A stretch of DNA of 64,000 nucleotides from an uncultured Planctomycetota bacterium (GCA_963823665.1 CAWGMQ010000010.1:1344001-1408000), one strand, 5' to 3'; numbered from the stretch's first letter, positions 2-9,387 are shown. A program made the numbers and translations. The notes: a model not told the origin generated them from the sequence alone.

Positions 2-421
2 TTTTCGACGAAGGCAGTTCTCAATCGCCTCGAGAAAACCGTGCCACCAGGATGGACCGGGCGGCAAGAACAGCCTGTGCGCATTCCCGAATATGACGAG
101 CCCGAGCCCGACATCTGCATAGTCCGGGGTTCCGACGGCGACTACCGGCACCGCCACCCCGACGCAACTGACGTGGGCCTGTTGGTCGAAGTCTCCAGGA
201 AAAACCCAATTGCCGATCGCCAGCAGGGCAATATTTATGGGCGCAGCGGTATCCCCATTCACTGGATCGTCAACCTGGTCGACCGCCGCGTTGAAGTGTA
301 CACCGATCCGGGCCCGGGAGGGTATGCATCCCGAACCGACTTCGGGTCCGGGCAGAGTGTTCCTGTGGTGATCGACGGCACGCCATGCGGCCAGATCGCC
401 GTCGACGACATCCTACCGTGA
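2..421 (+). CDS. Uma2 (DUF820) family PD-(D/E)XK endonuclease-like protein, 5' end outside window
   Basis: Frame open from base 2 (FSTKAVLNRLEKTVPPGW...). Motifs EPEPDI, LLVEVS and YGRSGIPIHWIVNL are typical of Uma2. Confidence 0.85.
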   Translation, partial: FSTKAVLNRLEKTVPPGWTGRQEQPVRIPEYDEPEPDICIVRGSDGDYRHRHPDATDVGLLVEVSRKNPIADRQQGNIYGRSGIPIHWIVNLVDRRVEVYTDPGPGGYASRTDFGSGQSVPVVIDGTPCGQIAVDDILP

Positions 422-453
422 CGAGCCCATCGCCGCGAAACTTGTGAGACCCG

Positions 454-2087
454 TCACCTCAGCTTCACCCGTTCGCCCGCCACCATCGCACCCTCATTCG
501 GCACGAACTCGCACACCACATACACGAGCGCGGGCTCGACAGCAGAGCCCCGCGTCGCCGGGTAACCTTGCACAGACTTGAGCGTGTAAAGGTCTCGATG
601 CTTCTCGATCCACGCCGCAAAGCCCGGCACTTCCTCGGGCCGCCGCGAAAGCAGCACGCACCGTAACGGATGCTGCGCCGAGACGCGGTCCCATCGCGGG
701 CGATCCCCCTCGCGATGCCGCCGTGAGTAGATCCGCTGGTAACACAGGTACTGGTCGGCCCCGTCGTAGCACCACCGCTTGGGTCCAAACGAGATCCCCA
801 GGTCACTCCGCACGCACACCACCTCGCCGCTGGCCGACATCTCCTCCCAGAACCAGCGAGCAAATTCACGTCCGGTTCGGTCCCAAGGTGCGCGGTAGGG
901 ATGGCCCAGGTCGCTGCCCAGCCTGCCGACCGCGAACAGCGCCAGGAGGCATCCGCACGCGACCACGATCCGCCGTCGGACCACCACCCGCGGAATCTTG
1001 GACCAGATCCATGACATCCCCGCCGCAGCCAGAATGAGCACGGCCGGAACCAGGTACAAATTCACCCGCGCACTCAGCCCGAACGGATACTGCCGCAGCG
1101 CCGCCGCAAAGAGCGTCAGCAAAATGGGAAGAGCAAGCACAGCCGCCAACCGCCGGCGCTGCGCAACAGGATCATCGTACCGAGCGCAAAGCAGCCGAAA
1201 ATCACAGGTGTCAGCCACGCCAGCCGAAGATCGCCTCCATGTGGAAACGCGAAGAGCGGTCCGGTCGCCATTCGCAGCAGCCACCGCCAGAGCGCGCCCG
1301 GGTCCAGAATCGAGGGTGGAAACGCGCCGGCCCAGAACTTGAGGAAATACGCACGGTCGTCCGGGGAAACCCGGTATTGCCCGAGAGCGGCCATCAACCC
1401 GACAGAAATGCCCGTGGTCGCCACAAATGCAGCCAGCGGCAGCCCGATCGAGGCCGAGCGTTTCTTGAACAATTCCCAGACAGCGACCACGCCGATCGCG
1501 GCAATCGTGAACAGCGATGGTAACGAAACACCGATTGCCAGCGGCACCACTCCCGCAATCAGCCAGAGCCCCCATCTCGTCCCCGGCGACGAGATCCACC
1601 GCGCGCAGAGCCAGAGAAGCACCAGGCTCACGAGCAAGTCGCTCTCGTACGGCTTCGCCTCGCCCGCATAGCGGATGAGCGGCTCAGAGACCGCGAAGAA
1701 CGCAACCGCCAGAAACGTGCCCGGTGTTCCGCGGCCGAGGTAGCGTCGCGACAACCAGTAGAAGAACGGCACACTCGCCACGCTGGAGCAGAGCGGAAAA
1801 AGCCGCAGTGCAAGCTCTGAGAATCCCACCAATCGCGCCGCAATCCACTCGATCGCCAGAAAACCCAGCGGGCACACCTGACGATAGTCCAGCGGTTGGG
1901 CCAGCTCGCTCCAGTTACGGTCGAGCAGATTCGCCGCGAGCATCGTCTCGTCGCACCACATCGGGTAATTCTGGATCGCTCGCACCAGCCGCAGGATCAC
2001 CGCCACGGCCAGAAACCCCGCGATTCCACGCGTCAATCGCCGCTGCAAAGCGTGTCCGTCGTCGGACGCCGCCGAAGAGTCTTCCAT
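454..2087 (-). CDS. Multi-pass membrane glycosyltransferase (GT-C / family 39-like), one frameshift near 1155
   Basis: ORF 1116..2087 (MWCDE motif after TM1, PLGF, RYAGEAKPY, many hydrophobic helices) continues in the frame of ORF 454..1599 (LPILLTLFAAALRQYPFG..RVNLYLVP). Confidence 0.7.
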
Positions 2088-2202
2088 CGCTTCCCGGTTT
2101 CCACGCGCAGAGGGCCGTCCATCACGCCCACCAACCTCTTATTGGTCATCGGCAGCGGCGGGATTCTAGTCCAGCAAAACTCCGAGCGTCATTCGCCGCG
2201 AC

Positions 2203-2390
2203 TTACCGTTTCTGCGGCTTTTTGGGCGGCTTCAGCTTGATGACTTCCTTCAGTGTCGCGGACGTGCTCGCCCCGAAGTCCGCGCTGCCGCCGCGCGGGA
2301 CGCTGATCGCACGCAGCCCGAGCGCAAGCGGTGCGTTTCTGCCCGCCGGTCAGGTCGAGTGTCGCAATTGCCGTCGCAATGCGTGTCGTC
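2203..2390 (-). pseudogene. Decayed C-terminal remnant of a bacterial Ig-like (Big_3-type) domain protein
   Basis: Minus strand reads TAIATLDLTGGQ /frameshift/ PLALGLRAISVPRGGSADFGASTSATLKEVIKLKPPKKPQKR-stop. This resembles the Big_3 ending (G.H.I...YGG...F..STS..L). No start or N-terminus found. Confidence 0.5.
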
Positions 2391-2565
2391 TACTACTGGT
2401 GCTTGCACCGATTCGCAGCTTTGCCGAAGCGTGCGATACCGCCAACCGAGGCCGGCTTGGTCGGGCCAAGAATCGTTGGCATCGCGTTTGAGTCGGAATG
2501 CAACGCGCGGGTTTCCGATCGTACGCGGCGGCCTTGGCCGTCCGGGGCCTTCCAGGAGCTTCACG

Positions 2566-4122
2566 ATGGCACTCGACAAGAAGTACTACGTCCACACCAC
2601 CGACGATGGTGCCCTGGGTGACACCACCCCGGCCGACATCAACGCGCTGGTGGCCTCATTGGCCTCAGCCAAGCGCGTGGCGGTGGTCTTGCACGGCGGG
2701 CTCGTCTCGAAGAGTGCGGCGCTGGCTACGGCGGAAGGTCTCGTGCAACCGCTTATCGAATCCGAAGTCCATCCCATTTTCGTCATCTGGGAAACCGGGT
2801 TCCTGGAAACGCTCCGCGACCTTCTGCAGAAAGTCTGGGACGAAGATCTGTTCAAGGACCTGGTGAAGAAGCTTTTGCAACACATGGCGGCGACGGTCGC
2901 CGACGAGTATCTGCTGGGCGCGCGGGATGCTCTGGGTTTACCCCAACCGCCCGACGACCTGGAAGTCTCGCGTGAATACCGCAAGTTGAAGCACAACGAG
3001 GAGCCATTCGCTGATGCAAAGACTGCGCAGGCCGCGTGCTGCGTCAAATGACGAGATCCGGCGCCTGCAAGACGATCTCCAGAGCGACCCGCGCTTCAAT
3101 CTCGAAGTGGAGGCGGCTGCCCGCTGGATCGAAGACAAGCAGGACGAGCAGGCCGGCGTCCCGGCCGCGGCGCGGCTTCCGGCGGGGCCGGCGAAGCCGA
3201 CTCTGGCAGACCCGGAAGCGCTCCTCGAACCGATGCCTGCCGGAAGCGCCCGGGAACGGCGAGGCCCCGGGGTTTCTTGTCGGTTGCCAAGGCCGCCTGG
3301 AGCGCGGCTCAGGTCTTCCGCCGCGTCGTTAGCCGCTATCGGGAGGGACGGGACCACGGCGTCTACGCGACGGTGGTCGAGGAGGTGCTGCGCCAGTTCT
3401 ATGGAACCAACGTCGGCAGCGCCATGTGGGGGACTATGAAGCGGCAGGCCCGGGCAGCCTTCACCGACCCCGGCCAGGCGCCAGTTCGCTGCGGCTGGTA
3501 TTTGTGCGAACGCCTCGGGATGATGGTTAGCGGCGGGCACGCTCCGCAGATCTCGATCGTGGCACACAGTGCCGGTGCGAATTACGCCTGTCACATGGTC
3601 GATTACGTCGGAACGACGCGCGGCCCTGTCTTCCCCGACGGCTTCGCGTTCAAAAACCTGCTACTGATGGCGCCGGCCTGCAACTTCGGGCTCTTTGACG
3701 CCATCACCACCGCGCAACCGCCTGTCTTCGAGAACTTCCGCCTGTTCGCCCTTAAGGACGAGCTCGAACGCGGCTACTGGGAGGTTCCGGTTATCTACCC
3801 TCGCTCACTGCTCTATCTGGTGGCCGGGGCATTCGAGAAGGAATCCGACGGTAGCACGGGCGCCTACGACCTGCCGCTGCTAGGCATGGAGCGTTATTAC
3901 ACTCAGTCCGAGACTTACAAGCAGCCGGAGATCGACCGCGTGCGCCGATTTCTCGGGACTACGCCGCCGGGCCGCCAGGTCTGGTCCGTTAGCGCCGGGG
4001 GGGGCCTGGGTTTGGAGGCGGACAGCCGGACTCACGGCCGCTTCTTCCTCGACGCGGAAGATCCGCCACGGCCCACACAGACAATGCGAAGCGTCTTGCA
4101 CGTGCTCAAGAACGGCGTGTGA
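2566..4122 (+). CDS. Alpha/beta-hydrolase-fold protein (HGGL / AHSAG family), split by frameshifts at ~3035-3280
   Basis: AGGAG RBS at 2554, ATG at 2566. VVLHGGL oxyanion-like motif, IFVIWETG, nucleophile elbow IVAHSAGA, LLMAPAC, YPRSLLYLV, C-terminal THG His. Pieces lie in ORFs 2359..3051, 3014..3439 and 3277..4122. Confidence 0.75.
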
Positions 4123-4131
4123 TCCTCATTC

Positions 4132-4647
4132 ATGAATGACACCCATTTCGCAATCGTCGTCGGAATCGATCGTTATCCGCGCCTGGGACGGCATTTGACG
4201 GCAGCGCGCAAAGACGCCGAGGCCTTCGACGCCTGGTTGGCGGATCCCGCCGGAGGTGCGGTACCGAAGGCCAACCGGAAGCTGATCGTTGCCGACCTCC
4301 CAGTGGATGCCACGCCGGAGCAGGCCAAACCGCTCCTTTCGGAAGTCAAATCGGCTCTGTTGGAGGTGAGGGCGGCCTCCGACGCCATCTCCGCGGCGGA
4401 CGAGGCAAGAGACCAGAATCGCTGGGAACAGACGCGTCTCTACCTTTACGTTTCCGGCCACGGCATGGCGCTGCGGTCCGAGGAGGCCGCCCTGCTCACG
4501 GCCAACGCCGGGGTTGATTGGTGGCAGGAGCGCGTCAATTGCGCCGACGTTCACAATCACCTGGAAGTCGATTACAATGGTGGTACAACGGCTGGTGGCT
4601 CAGGTCGAGCAACTCTACACGTTCGCGCTGGACCGCCGTCAGTTTGA
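4132..4647 (+). CDS. Caspase/metacaspase (peptidase C14)-like N-terminal half; catalytic His present, Cys strand absent
   Basis: FAIVVGIDRYP..L....DA.AF..WL (beta1/helix1) and LYLYVSGHG His motif. No DC/DAC/DCC motif follows in any frame nearby. Confidence 0.75.
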   Translation: MNDTHFAIVVGIDRYPRLGRHLTAARKDAEAFDAWLADPAGGAVPKANRKLIVADLPVDATPEQAKPLLSEVKSALLEVRAASDAISAADEARDQNRWEQTRLYLYVSGHGMALRSEEAALLTANAGVDWWQERVNCADVHNHLEVDYNGGTTAGGSGRATLHVRAGPPSV

Positions 4648-5386
4648 GAAAATCCGCACGCTTACGCTGGCACAACTGTCCCGTATGATCGACTTGTCCC
4701 GCACCGCCGTGGCTCGGGCGGTGACACCGTCGCTGGCTTTGCCGGGGCCTCCCCGCCACCAACCGGCCCGGGCGCCGATCGATATCAGCAAATGGTCAGC
4801 CGAAGCATCGCTCAGCGCCGCCAAATCCAGGACGATCGGCTCGGGCGCGGAGGTCAACCTTCCACATGCTGGTTCCAGGGCGCGTTGGCCACCCCAGAAC
4901 GGGCGTGACTATGTCCGCAGCGATGCGTTCGGACGGCTGCTGCTAGACGTGATCGAGCCGCTCGCGCGCGAGTACTCCAGCCACGACTTCGTCGATGCCG
5001 CGGCGGAAATCTTCACTTGGTTGGACACGAAGCTACGCACGAACCGGCGGTTCATCAACGCCCGCCGCTTTCCGACGGAAGCCGACTTCCGTGCGTATCT
5101 TCGCCAGGCCGCCTGGAATGCCGCCCGGATGGCAGCGCGTCGCCTCAAAGCGCACGAGACGCTGCCCGCGGCAGCGTTCGAAATCGACCTGTCGCTCGAC
5201 CCGGTGACCCAAGCCTGCCTTCAAGAAAGCCTCGAGCGGCTGGTTGAGCCACACAAGACTGTGCTCGAGCGATTGTTCTTCGAGAACGACGACCTGGAAA
5301 TGGTCGCCAGCATTCTCGGCAAGACGCCAACCGAGGTCGAAACGCTCTACGCGGAGGCAATCGACCTGCTGAAGCTCGAGCCATAA
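4577..5386 (+). CDS. Sigma-70/ECF-like sigma factor with N-terminal extension
   Basis: DAAAEIF...FRAYLRQAAWNAARMAARR (region 2-like) and LERL...KTVLERLFFENDDLEMVASILGKTPTEVETLYAEAIDLLK (region 4 HTH). ATG 4577 lies inside the caspase ORF; start uncertain. Confidence 0.65.
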   Translation: MVVQRLVAQVEQLYTFALDRRQFEKIRTLTLAQLSRMIDLSRTAVARAVTPSLALPGPPRHQPARAPIDISKWSAEASLSAAKSRTIGSGAEVNLPHAGSRARWPPQNGRDYVRSDAFGRLLLDVIEPLAREYSSHDFVDAAAEIFTWLDTKLRTNRRFINARRFPTEADFRAYLRQAAWNAARMAARRLKAHETLPAAAFEIDLSLDPVTQACLQESLERLVEPHKTVLERLFFENDDLEMVASILGKTPTEVETLYAEAIDLLKLEP

Positions 5387-5401
5387 AAGCCCGCCTGAGC
5401 G

Positions 5402-5599
5402 TTACTCGCTATCCGTCCCGACGCCCACGTCCTCCGGCTCGAGAGCTTCCTTGAGTAAGAAAAGGGCGTTAAGCTTCTGCGCCCGGTCCAGGAAAACGTG
5501 GTCCTTGGTGTGCTTTTCGACGAATTCTTGCACCTGCCGAGCCTGTGGGTCACCGTACTCTCGCAGGAGCCTGGTGTACTCGAACAGTTGATTTGCCAT
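5402..5599 (-). CDS. Small helical hypothetical protein (65 aa)
   Basis: Strong RBS AAAGGAGA upstream of ATG. MANQLFEYTRLLREYGDPQA...; acidic tail. Confidence 0.65.
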   Translation of the reverse strand: MANQLFEYTRLLREYGDPQARQVQEFVEKHTKDHVFLDRAQKLNALFLLKEALEPEDVGVGTDSE

Positions 5600-5737
5600 A
5601 GCGATTTCTCCTTTGCGCGGCAGCCCCGCGCGCCCCGGGGAAGTTTTCTCTACCACTGAGTGCACCGCGGTCAGAATTATTGTGTAAATGGAAGTTCTCA
5701 AAAGAGTTAGGGCCAATCACCCGCGCGCCGGGCGACC

Positions 5738-7356
5738 TCACACGCCCGCCAGCGCGCTCAGCAGCTTCGCACCGTCCGGCACACCCCACCCGGAGGCCGC
5801 GTCAAACCCCGCCTTCGCGGCATAGCCGACGCCCGGGTCCGGATGTGAGGCGTTGTTGCCCGAGGTGACGTCGCGCAATGCGCCCTTGCCGACAGGCTCA
5901 CCGTTTCCACCGTTCTTGTAGAGCAGCGGCGTGAGGAATCGCCGTTGCTTGGCCTGGGGTAACGACGCATTCACCCGAGCGATCAGCGCAGCCCACAGCG
6001 GAGCCGAGGCGCTCGTCCCACCGTTCGGTTGGCGCCTGGTCATGAACACGAGGTCGTAGAGAGGCGGCCCGGCGAGCGCCGCGACGTCGGGCACAACCCG
6101 CCCGTCAATGCTTCCGGAATTGATCGAGGCAACGTGAACCTTCTGCCACGACGGACGATCGAAGACCCTGCTCACTCCGCCCCCGGTCGCTCCACCGCCC
6201 TGGTTCTGAGTCCGGAAACCCGGCGACTCCCACCAGACAACTTCGGAGACGCTTGCGCCGGAACTCTTGAGCATCGTACCCCCAACCGCCAGCACGTGCG
6301 GGCTGCTGCCTGGAAAGTCCACGTGCCCGTGGCCGTCATTCCCGTCGTCGCCCGAGCCGTCGTCTCCCGCGGCGACGCACGTGGTGATGCCGAGCAATCG
6401 GATGGCGTTGAGCCGCTCATTGATCGCTTGAACGGCATTTCCCGACCACCCCACGTCGTCTTCGGCCGATCCCCAACTGATCGAGAGCACGGTCGGATTC
6501 GCCGTGATCACCGCGTTCAGCAAGTCAACCCACCCTCGCTGATCGAACGTCGAGAAATAAACCGAGATCGTCCCCGCGGGGCAGAGCCCGGCGACAATCT
6601 CGATGTCCATCATCACCTCGATGCTTGCGACGAGCTGATCGTTACGTTGGTTGGGAGGAAGCGCAGAAATCTGCTCCTGCGTGAACGCCGGCGCATCGAC
6701 TGAGATCGCCTGCACGTTCGGGACCGCGCGCCGAACTTTTTGCAAAAAGTCGTGACGTCGTCGGCGAAATAGCCGCCGCCGAACTCGGCAATCGCGATGG
6801 TCTGGCCGGCACCGTCCCCGGGTGGAAAGTTGTAGCGGTGCTCGAGATCTGCCGGTGCCACGGGTACCAAGGCGCTGCCGGCGCCGGCGCGGGCCTTGCG
6901 GTGGGCCATGCACCGCTGGTCGAGTCCGAACACGCCGGTCACGATTCCCTTGAGCTCGGCGGGAATCGACAGCGTTCCCTTCCGGCCGCGAAACTCCCCG
7001 TGCTTTGCCGACCGCATGATCGCCATGCCGGGCTTGAACGCCGCTTCCATCGTTTTCGCCGTGCCGCTGACGCACATGCTGCGATTCTCCAGCGACGTAG
7101 TATCAACCTTGAGGCCAAACGCCTTCAGCGACTTCGCCACCTTGTCGGCATCGGATTTCTTGGCACCGAATTTCTCCGCAAGCTCCGCCGGCGTCATCCG
7201 CTGCCCGACGTAGTCATCCGGACCAGGAAGCTTGGGCCCCGAAAGCGTGATCGTCACCACGATCTTCTCGTTGGGGTCGACATCGCGCACGCGGATCGTA
7301 CCGGCCTGCACCCCGCGCTTGCTGCCGGACAAGACCACGTGAGTTTTCGTTGCCAT
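5738..7356 (-). CDS. S53 family (sedolisin/kumamolisin) serine-carboxyl peptidase with prodomain, frameshift near 6740
   Basis: Prodomain in 6613..7356, then GQTIAIAEFGGG. Catalytic EVMMD, ISWG, AAGDDGS, GGTSA, and Ca-site DVTSGNN..GFDAASGWG. No obvious signal peptide. Confidence 0.92.
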
Positions 7357-7501
7357 CTTGGTGCCCTTGGAATGGGAGTGCGCATCCTAGTCGTTGACCG
7401 GGCCTGGTGGAATATGGTACTCGCAACGAGCGACCCGATACCCACGCCGGCCACAGTCGTCGCCTGGAACGAATGGAGTTCTTTGGATCAATTCGAAAGG
7501 C

Positions 7502-8542
7502 TCAGGCTCTCATCTCCTCATGACGAGGAAAGTTCTCGACGGGACGCAATCCCTCGCCAAGCTTGTCACGCTCCGCGAGCAACGCACCAGTACACTCGCG
7601 GGCGCTCTGGCACTCGACGATCCACTTCGCGATGAAAGATCTCCGGGCGACGCAATCGACATCGAACGCCCAGAGAACAGCCATGAGCGGCCAGAGGAAC
7701 AATTCTCCTTCCTTCACCCGGCCGTAAACCAACGGCGGGACCACGTCCCGTCCAAACCAGCCCTCCGTGGCTGAAGCAATCGTTCCGGAAAGCACGGAAC
7801 GAAATCCCTGCCATTGGTAGATGTGTTCCAGGCAGTCACGATAGAACCGATAGCCTGGGTTCGATGGTTCCAGACTCACGGCCCCGAGGAAGCCCCCCAT
7901 TTTCGTCAGCTCCGCAATGGCCCTCAGCGACGCGGCGTCGGACACGTGGTTATAACGGTCAGTGCCAAGGCCGACGCTCACGAGAATCTTGACGATCCGC
8001 GGGTCGAGCGATGCCACAGAGGTGACAGAGACCGCGTCTTCGATGGGATCTCCCAGTCCTTCTTCATCGCCCGCCATGAGCGAGTCCGACCCGCCATCGA
8101 CAATCACGATCGCATCGATCTCGTGAGCTTCGCACAATTGCTCGTACAGCCGGCTGAGCAGAGGGACCGAGAACGCCCTGGCATAATAGGCATAGACGGA
8201 GTGCGGAGCAGTCGCGGGGTAGATCGCGTCGAGGTACGTACAGACATGGACCTCAGGTCCGTAATAGGGATCGGGTTGACTGGCACCCGTGACACGCTTG
8301 GCCACCGCTCCGCCGCTGTCGAAAATGGTCTCGGTTTCGCCGGTGATTTCGTTCGGGTCGCCGAAGGAATAACTTCCAATGACGACCGACTTACCGAGCC
8401 GTTGCAACTCGGGATAAAGCAGCAGGCTATGTACAAAGTCAAACCCACCGCCGCAGCCACACAGCATGACGGACTTCACCGAGGGGTCGGCGAGCTGACG
8501 CAGGAACGGGGGCAGAAATAAGGAATGTTCCGTACTCGGCAT
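7502..8542 (-). CDS. DUF1152 family protein
   Basis: GCGGGFD, VDGGSDSL.GDE.GLG.P.ED and LWPLM motifs. Confidence 0.8.
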   Translation of the reverse strand: MPSTEHSLFLPPFLRQLADPSVKSVMLCGCGGGFDFVHSLLLYPELQRLGKSVVIGSYSFGDPNEITGETETIFDSGGAVAKRVTGASQPDPYYGPEVHVCTYLDAIYPATAPHSVYAYYARAFSVPLLSRLYEQLCEAHEIDAIVIVDGGSDSLMAGDEEGLGDPIEDAVSVTSVASLDPRIVKILVSVGLGTDRYNHVSDAASLRAIAELTKMGGFLGAVSLEPSNPGYRFYRDCLEHIYQWQGFRSVLSGTIASATEGWFGRDVVPPLVYGRVKEGELFLWPLMAVLWAFDVDCVARRSFIAKWIVECQSARECTGALLAERDKLGEGLRPVENFPRHEEMRA

Positions 8543-8712
8543 AACATAATCCGTCCTATGCGCATATCGGCTTTCATGGCGCGCGATCTGCGTCAGCTCA
8601 TAAAGGGCAAGCAGTGAGTAGCCAGTCTACGCTCACTAACCTTGGAGTAATCGTCCCCGGCGCAAACGCCCTGATTGACCTGGTCTCCCCGCGCGTGACC
8701 GCGGACCATCGC

Positions 8713-9387
8713 TCAGTGCTTGGACTCTGAAAGCTTCTTGACGAAGTTTGCATGCGCTGCCGATTTGAGCCCGCGCTCGAGCGCTCGCACGTGGCGGGCG
8801 ATATCGTCTTCCCAGAGTGCCGATCCGTCGAGCCAGAGGCCAGGAAACGCCTTGGAGCGGAAAATCCCCCGGGAATCGGGCCGAACCAGTTCGTATCTAC
8901 CCTTCACCAGGCGGTGCCATCGCACGGCCTTCTCCTCGATCAGAACGGCGACGTAATCACGCACTGTGGCTGCTTCATAGAGGGCTTTCTTGACGCCGAG
9001 ATCGTACGCCGCACTCGTGACGCAAATTTCGGCCGCCAGCTCGGGAGCACCGGCATGATACTTACCTTGGATTGTCGATTGGCCTCCGTACTCAGGACGG
9101 ATCCACAGGTAGTTGTCGGGCTGCGGTGCGCTCTGGCGCATCAGCCATGTCGACTGACTGCCTGCGGCACAGCCCGGAGTGTTCAGGATGTAGATTCCCA
9201 ACCACATCGCAATCCAGAGTTCGGTGCGCCCGTGATCGCTCGATAGCGGGGAAGGCATGTAAACCACTCCATCGATTAGCTCGGCAAACTTGACTTCCGG
9301 CATGGCCTCCCAGCGACGCAGGAATTCCTGAACCGCCAGTCGTTGTCCGGCTCGAAGCGGCTGGTGGGCGCGATGGGCGATTGACAT
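8713..9387 (-). CDS. Uma2 (DUF820) family endonuclease-like protein
   Basis: AELIDGVVYMPSP, PQPD, GAPELAAEI, YDLGVKKALYE, FPGLWLD. Confidence 0.9.
   Translation of the reverse strand: MSIAHRAHQPLRAGQRLAVQEFLRRWEAMPEVKFAELIDGVVYMPSPLSSDHGRTELWIAMWLGIYILNTPGCAAGSQSTWLMRQSAPQPDNYLWIRPEYGGQSTIQGKYHAGAPELAAEICVTSAAYDLGVKKALYEAATVRDYVAVLIEEKAVRWHRLVKGRYELVRPDSRGIFRSKAFPGLWLDGSALWEDDIARHVRALERGLKSAAHANFVKKLSESKH

Follow-up and report, generated by a model that had tools for sequence, protein, structure and literature searches.

A probable decayed copy of a hydrolase-caspase-X cassette with a fused sigma-like domain in a planctomycetotal genome, and its relatives in other bacteria

Introduction

Pairs of a caspase and an alpha/beta-hydrolase, and proteases associated with sigma factors, have both been described in bacteria. 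In Lysobacter capsici, LcCaspase cuts LcHydrolase at two R|G sites, and LcHydrolase becomes toxic on expression as separate N- and C-terminal fragments (Evans et al., bioRxiv 10.1101/2025.11.14.688446). Caspase domains in vWA-MoxR (VMAP) systems are always found with a neighbouring alpha/beta-hydrolase (Kaur et al. 2020, PMC7159879). Among systems linked to clustered regularly interspaced short palindromic repeats (CRISPR), CalpL-CalpT-CalpS comprises a type III Lon-SAVED protease, an anti-sigma factor and a sigma factor similar to those of the extracytoplasmic function (ECF) group (bioRxiv 10.1101/2024.05.08.593097), and Csx29-Csx30-RpoE is a protease-sigma system of type III-E (Strecker et al. 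2022, PMC10028731). Here, a locus was analyzed in a window of 64,000 nucleotides from an uncultured Planctomycetota bacterium (GCA_963823665.1, CAWGMQ010000010.1:1344001-1408000; contig C10 of assembly G000), where an earlier note had read five open reading frames (ORFs) between positions 2566 and 7356 (a hydrolase, a half-caspase, a sigma-like protein, a 65-aa protein and an S53 peptidase) as a possible CRISPR-independent switch from proteolysis to transcription. The locus is most likely a decayed copy of a cassette composed of the hydrolase, the caspase and a fusion of a third protein, X, to the sigma-like domain (X::sigma), accompanied by a convergent gene for the 65-aa protein, and its protease system has in all likelihood lost its function.

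As in the LcHydrolase/LcCaspase and VMAP pairs, an alpha/beta-hydrolase gene and a caspase-like gene are adjacent and co-oriented in this cassette, the hydrolase has weak lipase/esterase affinities, and occurrence is wide in Actinomycetota and Pseudomonadota. As in LcHydrolase, two basic-small dipeptides surround a middle segment, here in predicted loops, and are tied to the presence of the caspase. The cassette differs from these known pairs in that the hydrolase comes first, the caspase carries no WD40 or STAND fusion and no vWA/MoxR genes lie near it, a separate X of about 500 aa following instead. Like CalpL-CalpT-CalpS and Csx29-Csx30-RpoE, it combines a protease of the defence type with a genetically linked ECF-like sigma factor and with a small protein or partner that would hold the sigma factor, a likeness which suggests that its output may also lead from proteolysis to transcription. 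In contrast to these systems, with their Lon-SAVED or TPR-CHAT proteases, the cassette has a plain C14-like caspase; its sigma-like domain is joined covalently to X instead of being bound by a separate substrate, and a hydrolase effector is present as well. Neither cas genes nor a TPR-CHAT or Lon-SAVED protease turned up in Pfam scans of the cassette neighbours, which did not include a dedicated CRISPR/cas search. With the ECF (group 4) pair sigmaE-RseA (PDB 1or7), the sigma-like domain has in common a two-domain sigma2/sigma4 fold, as recovered by Foldseek, with a small helical partner predicted on sigma4; it differs in scoring below every sigma hidden Markov model (HMM) threshold, in an unusual N-terminal motif (WPPxNG...NRRFIN), and in its partner, a soluble protein of 60-65 aa that is encoded convergently, in place of a co-transcribed anti-sigma factor with a classical anti-sigma domain.

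Both the pairing of hydrolase and caspase, with its zymogen logic, and the control of ECF-like sigma factors by proteases in CRISPR-linked systems are already known; that such hydrolase-caspase pairs had been described, and that a third gene belongs to them, had escaped the earlier note. In the text of the literature covered, no description was found of a three-gene form with X, of the X::sigma fusion or of a small sigma4-binding partner. The gating of effectors by proteases is coming to be seen as a principal logic of bacterial immunity, and the alpha/beta-hydrolase/caspase zymogen has only just been shown. Added here are a compact and widespread three-gene form of the pair (238 matches in many phyla, with an obligatory X) and the apparently variable C-terminal domains of X, one of which resembles ECF sigma factors and has a small predicted partner of its own. 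The cassette provides a testable counterpart, outside CRISPR, of the Craspase and CalpL-CalpT-CalpS protease-sigma circuits, and the frame breaks of the G000 assembly have to be weighed before the locus is annotated.

Results and discussion

A truncated caspase gene and a probable 2-kb deletion

The operon was found intact in a metagenome locus (L123), with the hydrolase at 3794-5494, the caspase at 5498-6574 (358 aa), X::sigma at 6561-8720 (719 aa), and the small gene directly behind X::sigma, convergent to it on the opposite strand. In the window, the C-terminal hydrolase piece shares 56% identity with the L123 hydrolase and is followed, after a gap of 9 bp, by a caspase-like ORF of 171 aa (4132-4647, + strand), whose caspase piece aligns to residues 6-147 of the 358 of the L123 caspase (49% identity). 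The frame that continues from nucleotide 4583 (its residues 72-337) aligns instead to residues 476-719 of L123 X::sigma (41% identity, E = 5e-57). L123 is collinear with both flanks in the window, and the locus therefore corresponds to an L123-like operon minus approximately 2 kb. As judged from these alignments, the part lost comprises the catalytic-Cys half of the caspase and about 475 residues of X, and the junction lies at 4564-4582 (+ strand), where codon ~148 of the caspase meets codon ~475 of X in an operon of the L123 type. The comparison points to a deletion that is probably real.

The same boundary was evident in the caspase family as a whole. An exhaustive search retrieved 943 relatives of the caspase-like ORF (E ≤ 0.001), typically of 345-365 aa, which cover it over its residues 1 to ~145/146 only; the N-terminal ~146 codons thus delimited by family alignment occupy 4132-4566, after which the ORF runs out of frame to its stop at 4647. 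The SGHG motif containing the His is retained, while the FADCCR motif with the Cys and the C-terminal part of ~190 aa are missing. The PADLOC caspase model matched the window ORF with E = 1.1e-7 and full-length relatives with E = 1e-11 to 1e-12; matches to NCBIfam caspase_w_EACC1 and to Pfam PF00656 (E = 0.021) were below cut-off, and the family profile matched the MALT1 paracaspase (E = 3e-4). The PADLOC, NCBIfam and MALT1 matches lend support to a caspase fold. The 'sigma' ORF was also considered as the missing C-terminal half of the caspase, and this assignment was rejected on comparison.

Because it lacks the catalytic Cys, the window copy most likely cannot act as a protease switch. A conflict module of protease and sigma factor is a fair reading of the ancestral system; for the copy at hand the proposed switch is not supported, the supposed half-caspase being a deletion product. 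That the five ORFs as they stand form a working CRISPR-independent switch is accordingly very improbable: gene order and tight spacing speak for it, as do relatives in which a sigma-like domain and the small protein accompany the caspase cassette, but the caspase lacks both its catalytic Cys and its C-terminal domain, the sigma ORF has a residual piece of X as its N-terminus, and the S53 gene is foreign to the module (see below).

The alternative that the deletion and the frame breaks are all assembly artefacts, and that the organism possesses an intact and functional L123-like operon with its small gene, is improbable in our judgement. Four one-base frame breaks were detected in 7.4 kb (at ~1122-1143, 3012-3048, 3265-3272 and ~6735), all of them in genes that are intact in relatives and at least two at short homopolymers; this density therefore points to consensus errors, and the breaks in the hydrolase, S53 and glycosyltransferase-like genes are probably errors of assembly. 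A mis-assembly dropping 2 kb is also conceivable, the deletion being known from the assembled sequence alone. However, errors in long-read consensus are typically one-base indels and not clean losses of 2 kb, both flanks of the junction align well to L123, and neither a second copy nor a leftover of the missing part was found anywhere in the 16.46-Mb assembly, in which no other copy of the hydrolase, the caspase or the X tail was present either. The G000 assembly consists of 12 contigs and is 91.9% complete. Together with the sister genome G001 (16.1 Mb; ~3% estimated contamination in each) it is very large with respect to the listed relatives (4-14 Mb).

A sigma-70 promoter-like match (TTCACA-17-TACAAT, 10/12) was observed at 4550-4578 (+ strand), exactly on the deletion junction, and its end coincides with the ATG that opens the chimeric ORF; promoter-like sites amounted to 2 in 3.7 kb, compared with 0.3 expected from shuffles.

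Reading frames and fold of the hydrolase

The three hydrolase pieces recovered by the ORF scan (2566-3051, 3014-3439 and 3277-4122, + strand) belong to one alpha/beta-hydrolase gene (2566-4122), which aligns to its homologues with two changes of frame and whose product is a predicted caspase-activated zymogen. Frame 1 over 2566-4122 holds a single TGA; the first break is located near 3012-3048, where an AAA run is present, and the second within a C4/G4 run (3265-3272). Past the TGA, frame 2 yields a sensible peptide that aligns to homologue residues 164-232. Read-through of the TGA, or its use for selenocysteine, was discarded, as frame 1 at 3051-3265 reads as Arg/Pro-rich nonsense while frame 2 aligns to homologues. 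The homologues are intact (470-491 aa, in a family of ~480-510 aa), and the window gene retains the AHSAG nucleophile motif, which belongs to an H-S-x-G signature invariant in the family.

No family was assigned to the hydrolase by Pfam, PADLOC or NCBIfam. An AlphaFold2 (AF2) model of a homologue (L010; predicted local distance difference test, pLDDT, 89.4; predicted template modelling score, pTM, 0.90) gave a dienelactone hydrolase as the best VIA-align match (9bld_A, Z 12.7, root-mean-square deviation 3.9, 203 aligned residues), followed by PGAP1, phospholipase A1, esterases and lipases, almost all rows being esterases or lipases; a Foldseek search of the same model against the PDB returned no match at E ≤ 0.001. 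According to the model, the protein is an alpha/beta-hydrolase with a core built from its N- and C-terminal parts.

At the level of Pfam, the evidence for the window ORFs was weak throughout (NonGDSL and DUF900, E 0.01-0.06; Peptidase_C14, E 0.021; Sigma70_r4, E 0.009), and only pro-kumamolisin and S8/S53 parts were significant in the scan of the locus. Since the matches for the other genes were all below threshold, the family names hydrolase, caspase and sigma rest on the deeper comparisons described here. In summary, the three tightly packed ORFs on the + strand, the 9-bp gap, the 65-aa gene and the S53 gene are present where the earlier note had placed them, yet they are not intact genes, given the frame breaks, the truncation and the chimeric ORF.

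The inserted segment and its S53 neighbour

DNA comparison with G001 revealed that the stretches matching window positions 42-2094 and 5735-7377 are adjacent in that genome. Finer mapping placed the homology at 2008-2094, 2215-2268 and 5735-5840, with ~113 bp of G001 sequence in place of window positions 2269-5734. This segment of ~3.5 kb, not present at the syntenic site of G001, contains all parts of the module except the S53 gene. No convincing direct or inverted terminal repeats and no target duplication were found at its ends. Searches of G001 and 39 other relatives recovered neither the caspase nor the sigma ORF, apart from one weak caspase match (G015).

The S53 sedolisin gene (5738-7356, - strand), identified by Pfam and by its G001 orthologue, includes a pro-kumamolisin activation domain and lies outside the module. 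The ORF scan split it into two frames (6613-7356 and 5738-7075), one base being missing near 6735 with respect to the G001 orthologue, which is intact (543 aa). In G001 this orthologue adjoins the glycosyltransferase-like gene with no insert between them, and the S53 gene is for this reason an ancestral neighbour of the site, a bystander and not part of the module, as it had been taken to be. In agreement with this, none of the 94 related loci (80 hydrolase and 14 sigma loci) yielded an S53 homologue.

Distribution of the hydrolase-caspase-X cassette

A survey of one genome per species retrieved 238 relatives of the hydrolase, and the best 80 loci were kept. The caspase family was present in 70 of these 80 loci, so that the hydrolase and the caspase-like gene do belong together, as first proposed from the window, and X was present in 68. 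The usual order was hydrolase (~500 aa), caspase (~350 aa) and X (~500-550 aa) on one strand, with ends overlapping or nearly abutting; in one lineage (L015/L016) it was caspase-X-hydrolase. Four of the caspase-less loci (L025, L029, L034 and L053) end at a contig edge. Hosts included Brocadia, Planctomycetota, Verrucomicrobiota, Chloroflexota, Streptomyces, Pseudomonas, Cupriavidus, Pedobacter and Chryseobacterium, among others. The neighbouring genes were unrelated, being housekeeping or miscellaneous, and no vWA, MoxR or STAND genes occurred among those scanned. The hydrolase-caspase-X trio is a widespread, self-contained cassette, conserved across phyla.

X matched no family in Pfam, PADLOC or NCBIfam. 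The AF2 model of L123 X::sigma (pLDDT 82.1, pTM 0.71) comprised two beta-sandwich domains within residues 10-230, a helical domain formed by 237-390 and 424-531, and a disordered linker (537-553), followed by the sigma-like helices. Foldseek matches of the X part were limited to generic beta-sandwich proteins (adhesin/pilin), with nothing matching the helical domain. The C-terminus of X was variable, as seen in stop-to-stop frames: a Cpn60/GroEL-like part (L084:5309-8815), TPR (L086:8854-10830) and an M4 peptidase (L083:8785-10770). Moreover, in two Planctomycetota metagenome-assembled genomes (L085:6299-10054 and L088) the hydrolase was joined to an S8 subtilase, with neither caspase nor basic-small site. 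These joins (L083-L086 and L088) are open frames, compatible both with fusion and with read-through into a neighbouring gene.

In a structure search of the ESM Atlas with L123 X (residues 1-535), unnamed clusters resembling X were retrieved (TM 0.42-0.55). Their members, of 696-805 aa, carry Peptidase_C14 (79-97% of members) and PF27295 Y4kD_C, which hints that X-like regions may be fused to caspases elsewhere.

Conserved basic-small sites in the hydrolase family

Two sites consisting of a basic and a small residue ([RK]-[GAS]) flank an insert of ~100 aa in the hydrolase. In the profile alignment of the 70 caspase-linked hydrolases, [RK] and [GAS] each reached 89% at column 120, and 99% and 97%, respectively, at column 221, as against 40% for such sites in the 10 caspase-less hydrolases. 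The same trend was observed with a motif-anchored regular expression, which took in 69 of the 80 hydrolases (11 were without the anchor motif): the second site was present in 59/59 caspase-linked proteins and absent in six caspase-less ones (L029, L046, L074, L075, L085 and L088). In the L010 model, K118/A119 and K229/G230 lie in loops (116-120, of low confidence, and 227-234, respectively).

By analogy with LcCaspase and LcHydrolase, the hydrolase of the intact relatives is inferred to be a caspase-activated zymogen effector, with X as its sensor or regulator. In these relatives, the caspase would likely cut the hydrolase at the two conserved sites around the insert; this would free an active lipase/esterase-like enzyme, and the infected cell would be killed or arrested, as for LcCaspase/LcHydrolase. 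X would sense or regulate the caspase, and in the X::sigma variant the sigma-like domain may be released by cleavage or used as bait.

The sigma-like domain and its fusion to X

The 'sigma' ORF of the window starts at 4514 or 4577, overlapping the caspase-like ORF, and ends at 5386 (+ strand). Its relatives are rare (8 proteins of near length in 5.8 billion), mostly of ~175 aa, and start at the WPPxNG motif, which in the window ORF is residue 104. The first ~60 residues of the latter resemble the C-terminal tail of X, corresponding to its last ~50 residues. Since the frame from 4583 aligns to L123 X::sigma, the ORF is a chimera made of a remnant of the X tail (4583-4760), in frame with the sigma-like domain, and of the ECF-sigma-like domain itself (4886-5386, sigma2 and sigma4), which was delimited by profiles and fold matches, starts at WPPxNG and appears intact.

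The fusion of X to the sigma family was not restricted to the window. Residues 16-530 of the 719-aa L123 protein match X and 553-722 match the sigma family; P0216-P0218 (698-702 aa) show the same architecture (X ~5-507, sigma ~527-700), and in the partial protein P0212 a sigma-like part follows an N-terminal region resembling X (E against X proteins down to 1.4e-23). The fusions are thus few, comprising L123, P0216-P0218, the partial P0212 and the window remnant, bearing out the proposed tie between the sigma-like region and the hydrolase-caspase pair. A long open frame in L128 was discarded as a further case, as only its sigma part aligned and no X match was found.

Against TIGR02937, the sigma-like domain reached E = 2.4e-5 (24 bits, with a cut-off of 42.9 bits). 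In the PDB, the family profile matched sigma factors only (SigF and sigma4 of FliA, E ~0.003), and Foldseek matched the L123 sigma model to SigL, SigH and sigmaE (probability 0.99-1.00, 160-180 columns, E ~0.01). An ECF sigma2/sigma4 fold is supported by these profiles and models.

In this context, the idea that unrelated gene fragments met by chance in a variable region, without ever having shared ancestry as a system, was considered and found scarcely credible. It would fit with the occurrence of the sigma-like or the 65-aa gene in 0 of the 80 genome hydrolase loci, and with the lack of a sigma orthologue among the 40 relatives and the 400 genomes of the phylum that were searched, where only generic ECF matches appeared (E 1e-6 to 1e-8). 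In L123, however, all four genes are intact and collinear, and the three proteins of 698-702 aa plus the partial one join X to the same sigma family. The observation named in advance as fatal to a common module, hydrolase-caspase pairs never occurring with this sigma or with S53 in other gene neighbourhoods, was made for S53 only, the sigma co-occurring with the pair in L123.

The architecture of the fusions also allows a more specific scheme, in which the intact relatives would be CRISPR-independent caspase-to-sigma switches. On infection, the caspase would unlock the hydrolase toxin and cut X::sigma in the disordered linker before WPPxNG, releasing an ECF-like sigma factor that would match the free-living members of the family exactly in size, and the convergent protein of 60-65 aa would be an anti-sigma factor binding sigma4. 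If true, one cassette would couple cell killing with a transcriptional alarm; we regard this scheme as unlikely. An [RK][GAS] dipeptide was found upstream of WPP in 4/4 fusion sequences inspected, a motif often expected by chance, and its use as a cleavage site is speculation drawn from the sequences.

The small convergent protein

The 65-aa protein is encoded at 5402-5599 (- strand), convergent to the sigma-like gene, and locus comparison and complex prediction make it a candidate anti-sigma or co-factor. In 10 of the 14 sigma loci a homologue, encoded on the opposite strand, came directly 3' of the sigma gene; in the 80 hydrolase loci none was found. Co-folding of the sigma-like protein with the 65-aa protein, a check put forward in the earlier note, gave a score of 0.67, compared with 0.00 for the best control; this mark is reached by 116/157 solved complexes and 2/215 mismatched pairs. 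Contact agreement between runs was at least 61% and the pLDDT of the partner at least 70. The predicted interface joins sigma residues 205-267 to residues 2-13 and 38-52 of the small protein, with two helices on region 4. The 65-aa protein is thus predicted to bind sigma region 4, which it would hold.

Free sigma genes (~175 aa) with a convergent small gene were found in L120-L122, L124-L126, L129 and L130. Such sigma genes often follow a gene for a conserved membrane protein of 150-166 aa (pairwise E 1e-12 to 1e-50), a product that may serve the free cassette as its membrane anti-sigma. This protein (L121:55-546, L122:25-453, L124:1203-1703, L127:1719-2174 and L125:45-251) combines predicted membrane helices with a C-terminal part that is helical, and belongs to no Pfam family.

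The existence of such pairs raises the possibility that the remnant in the window owes its retention to a stand-alone regulatory pair, the sigma-like protein with its 65-aa partner, which would still be at work, with the hydrolase as a silent passenger. Both ORFs are unbroken in the window, their binding is predicted, and the deletion junction provides a promoter-like match and an ATG. On the other hand, the window sigma ORF has ~100 extra N-terminal residues that are absent from stand-alone forms, the promoter match is one to the consensus only, and the segment is missing from the sister genome and so dispensable to the genus. Taken together, these observations make continued use of the pair a possibility that we would doubt sooner than assume.

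Weight of the evidence

The reading of the locus as a decayed cassette with a non-functional protease system is preferred here, and the following points weigh against it or narrow it. The four one-base frame breaks denote an imperfect consensus quality. The sigma family HMM scores are below the curated cut-offs, and because the sigma-like gene lies near none of the 80 genome hydrolase loci, its link to the cassette rests on few sequences. The sigma ORF and the 65-aa gene could work alone, being intact, and 'dead' in our reading covers the protease arm only. In the window hydrolase, the first site is R-D in place of [RK]-[GAS], the second being a conforming R-G. The likeness to LcHydrolase/LcCaspase is one of described features, and LcHydrolase is much shorter: to judge from fragment masses given in that preprint, it has ~300 aa and a middle fragment of 4.7 kDa, compared with ~480-510 aa and an insert of ~100 aa here. 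The zymogen, toxicity and defence roles of the hydrolase family are predictions drawn from that likeness.

Adjacent genes

A membrane glycosyltransferase-like gene occupies 454-2087 (- strand), where two overlapping ORFs (1116-2087 and 454-1599) result from a break of frame at about 1122-1143. In G001 the orthologue reads as a single frame of 588 aa, and the split is probably another one-base assembly error.

Upstream of the S53 gene, a DUF1152 gene was found at 7502-8542 (- strand), while in G001 that side is occupied by an aldehyde dehydrogenase gene, the difference therefore denoting a second rearrangement beside the locus. Genes for putative endonucleases of the Uma2 family were located at 8713-9387 (- strand; Pfam E = 1.8e-22) and at 2-421 (+ strand). 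Uma2 DNA occurs in several copies scattered in G001 (66-75% identity), and the 5' partial ORF at 2-421 matches multiple places in that genome.

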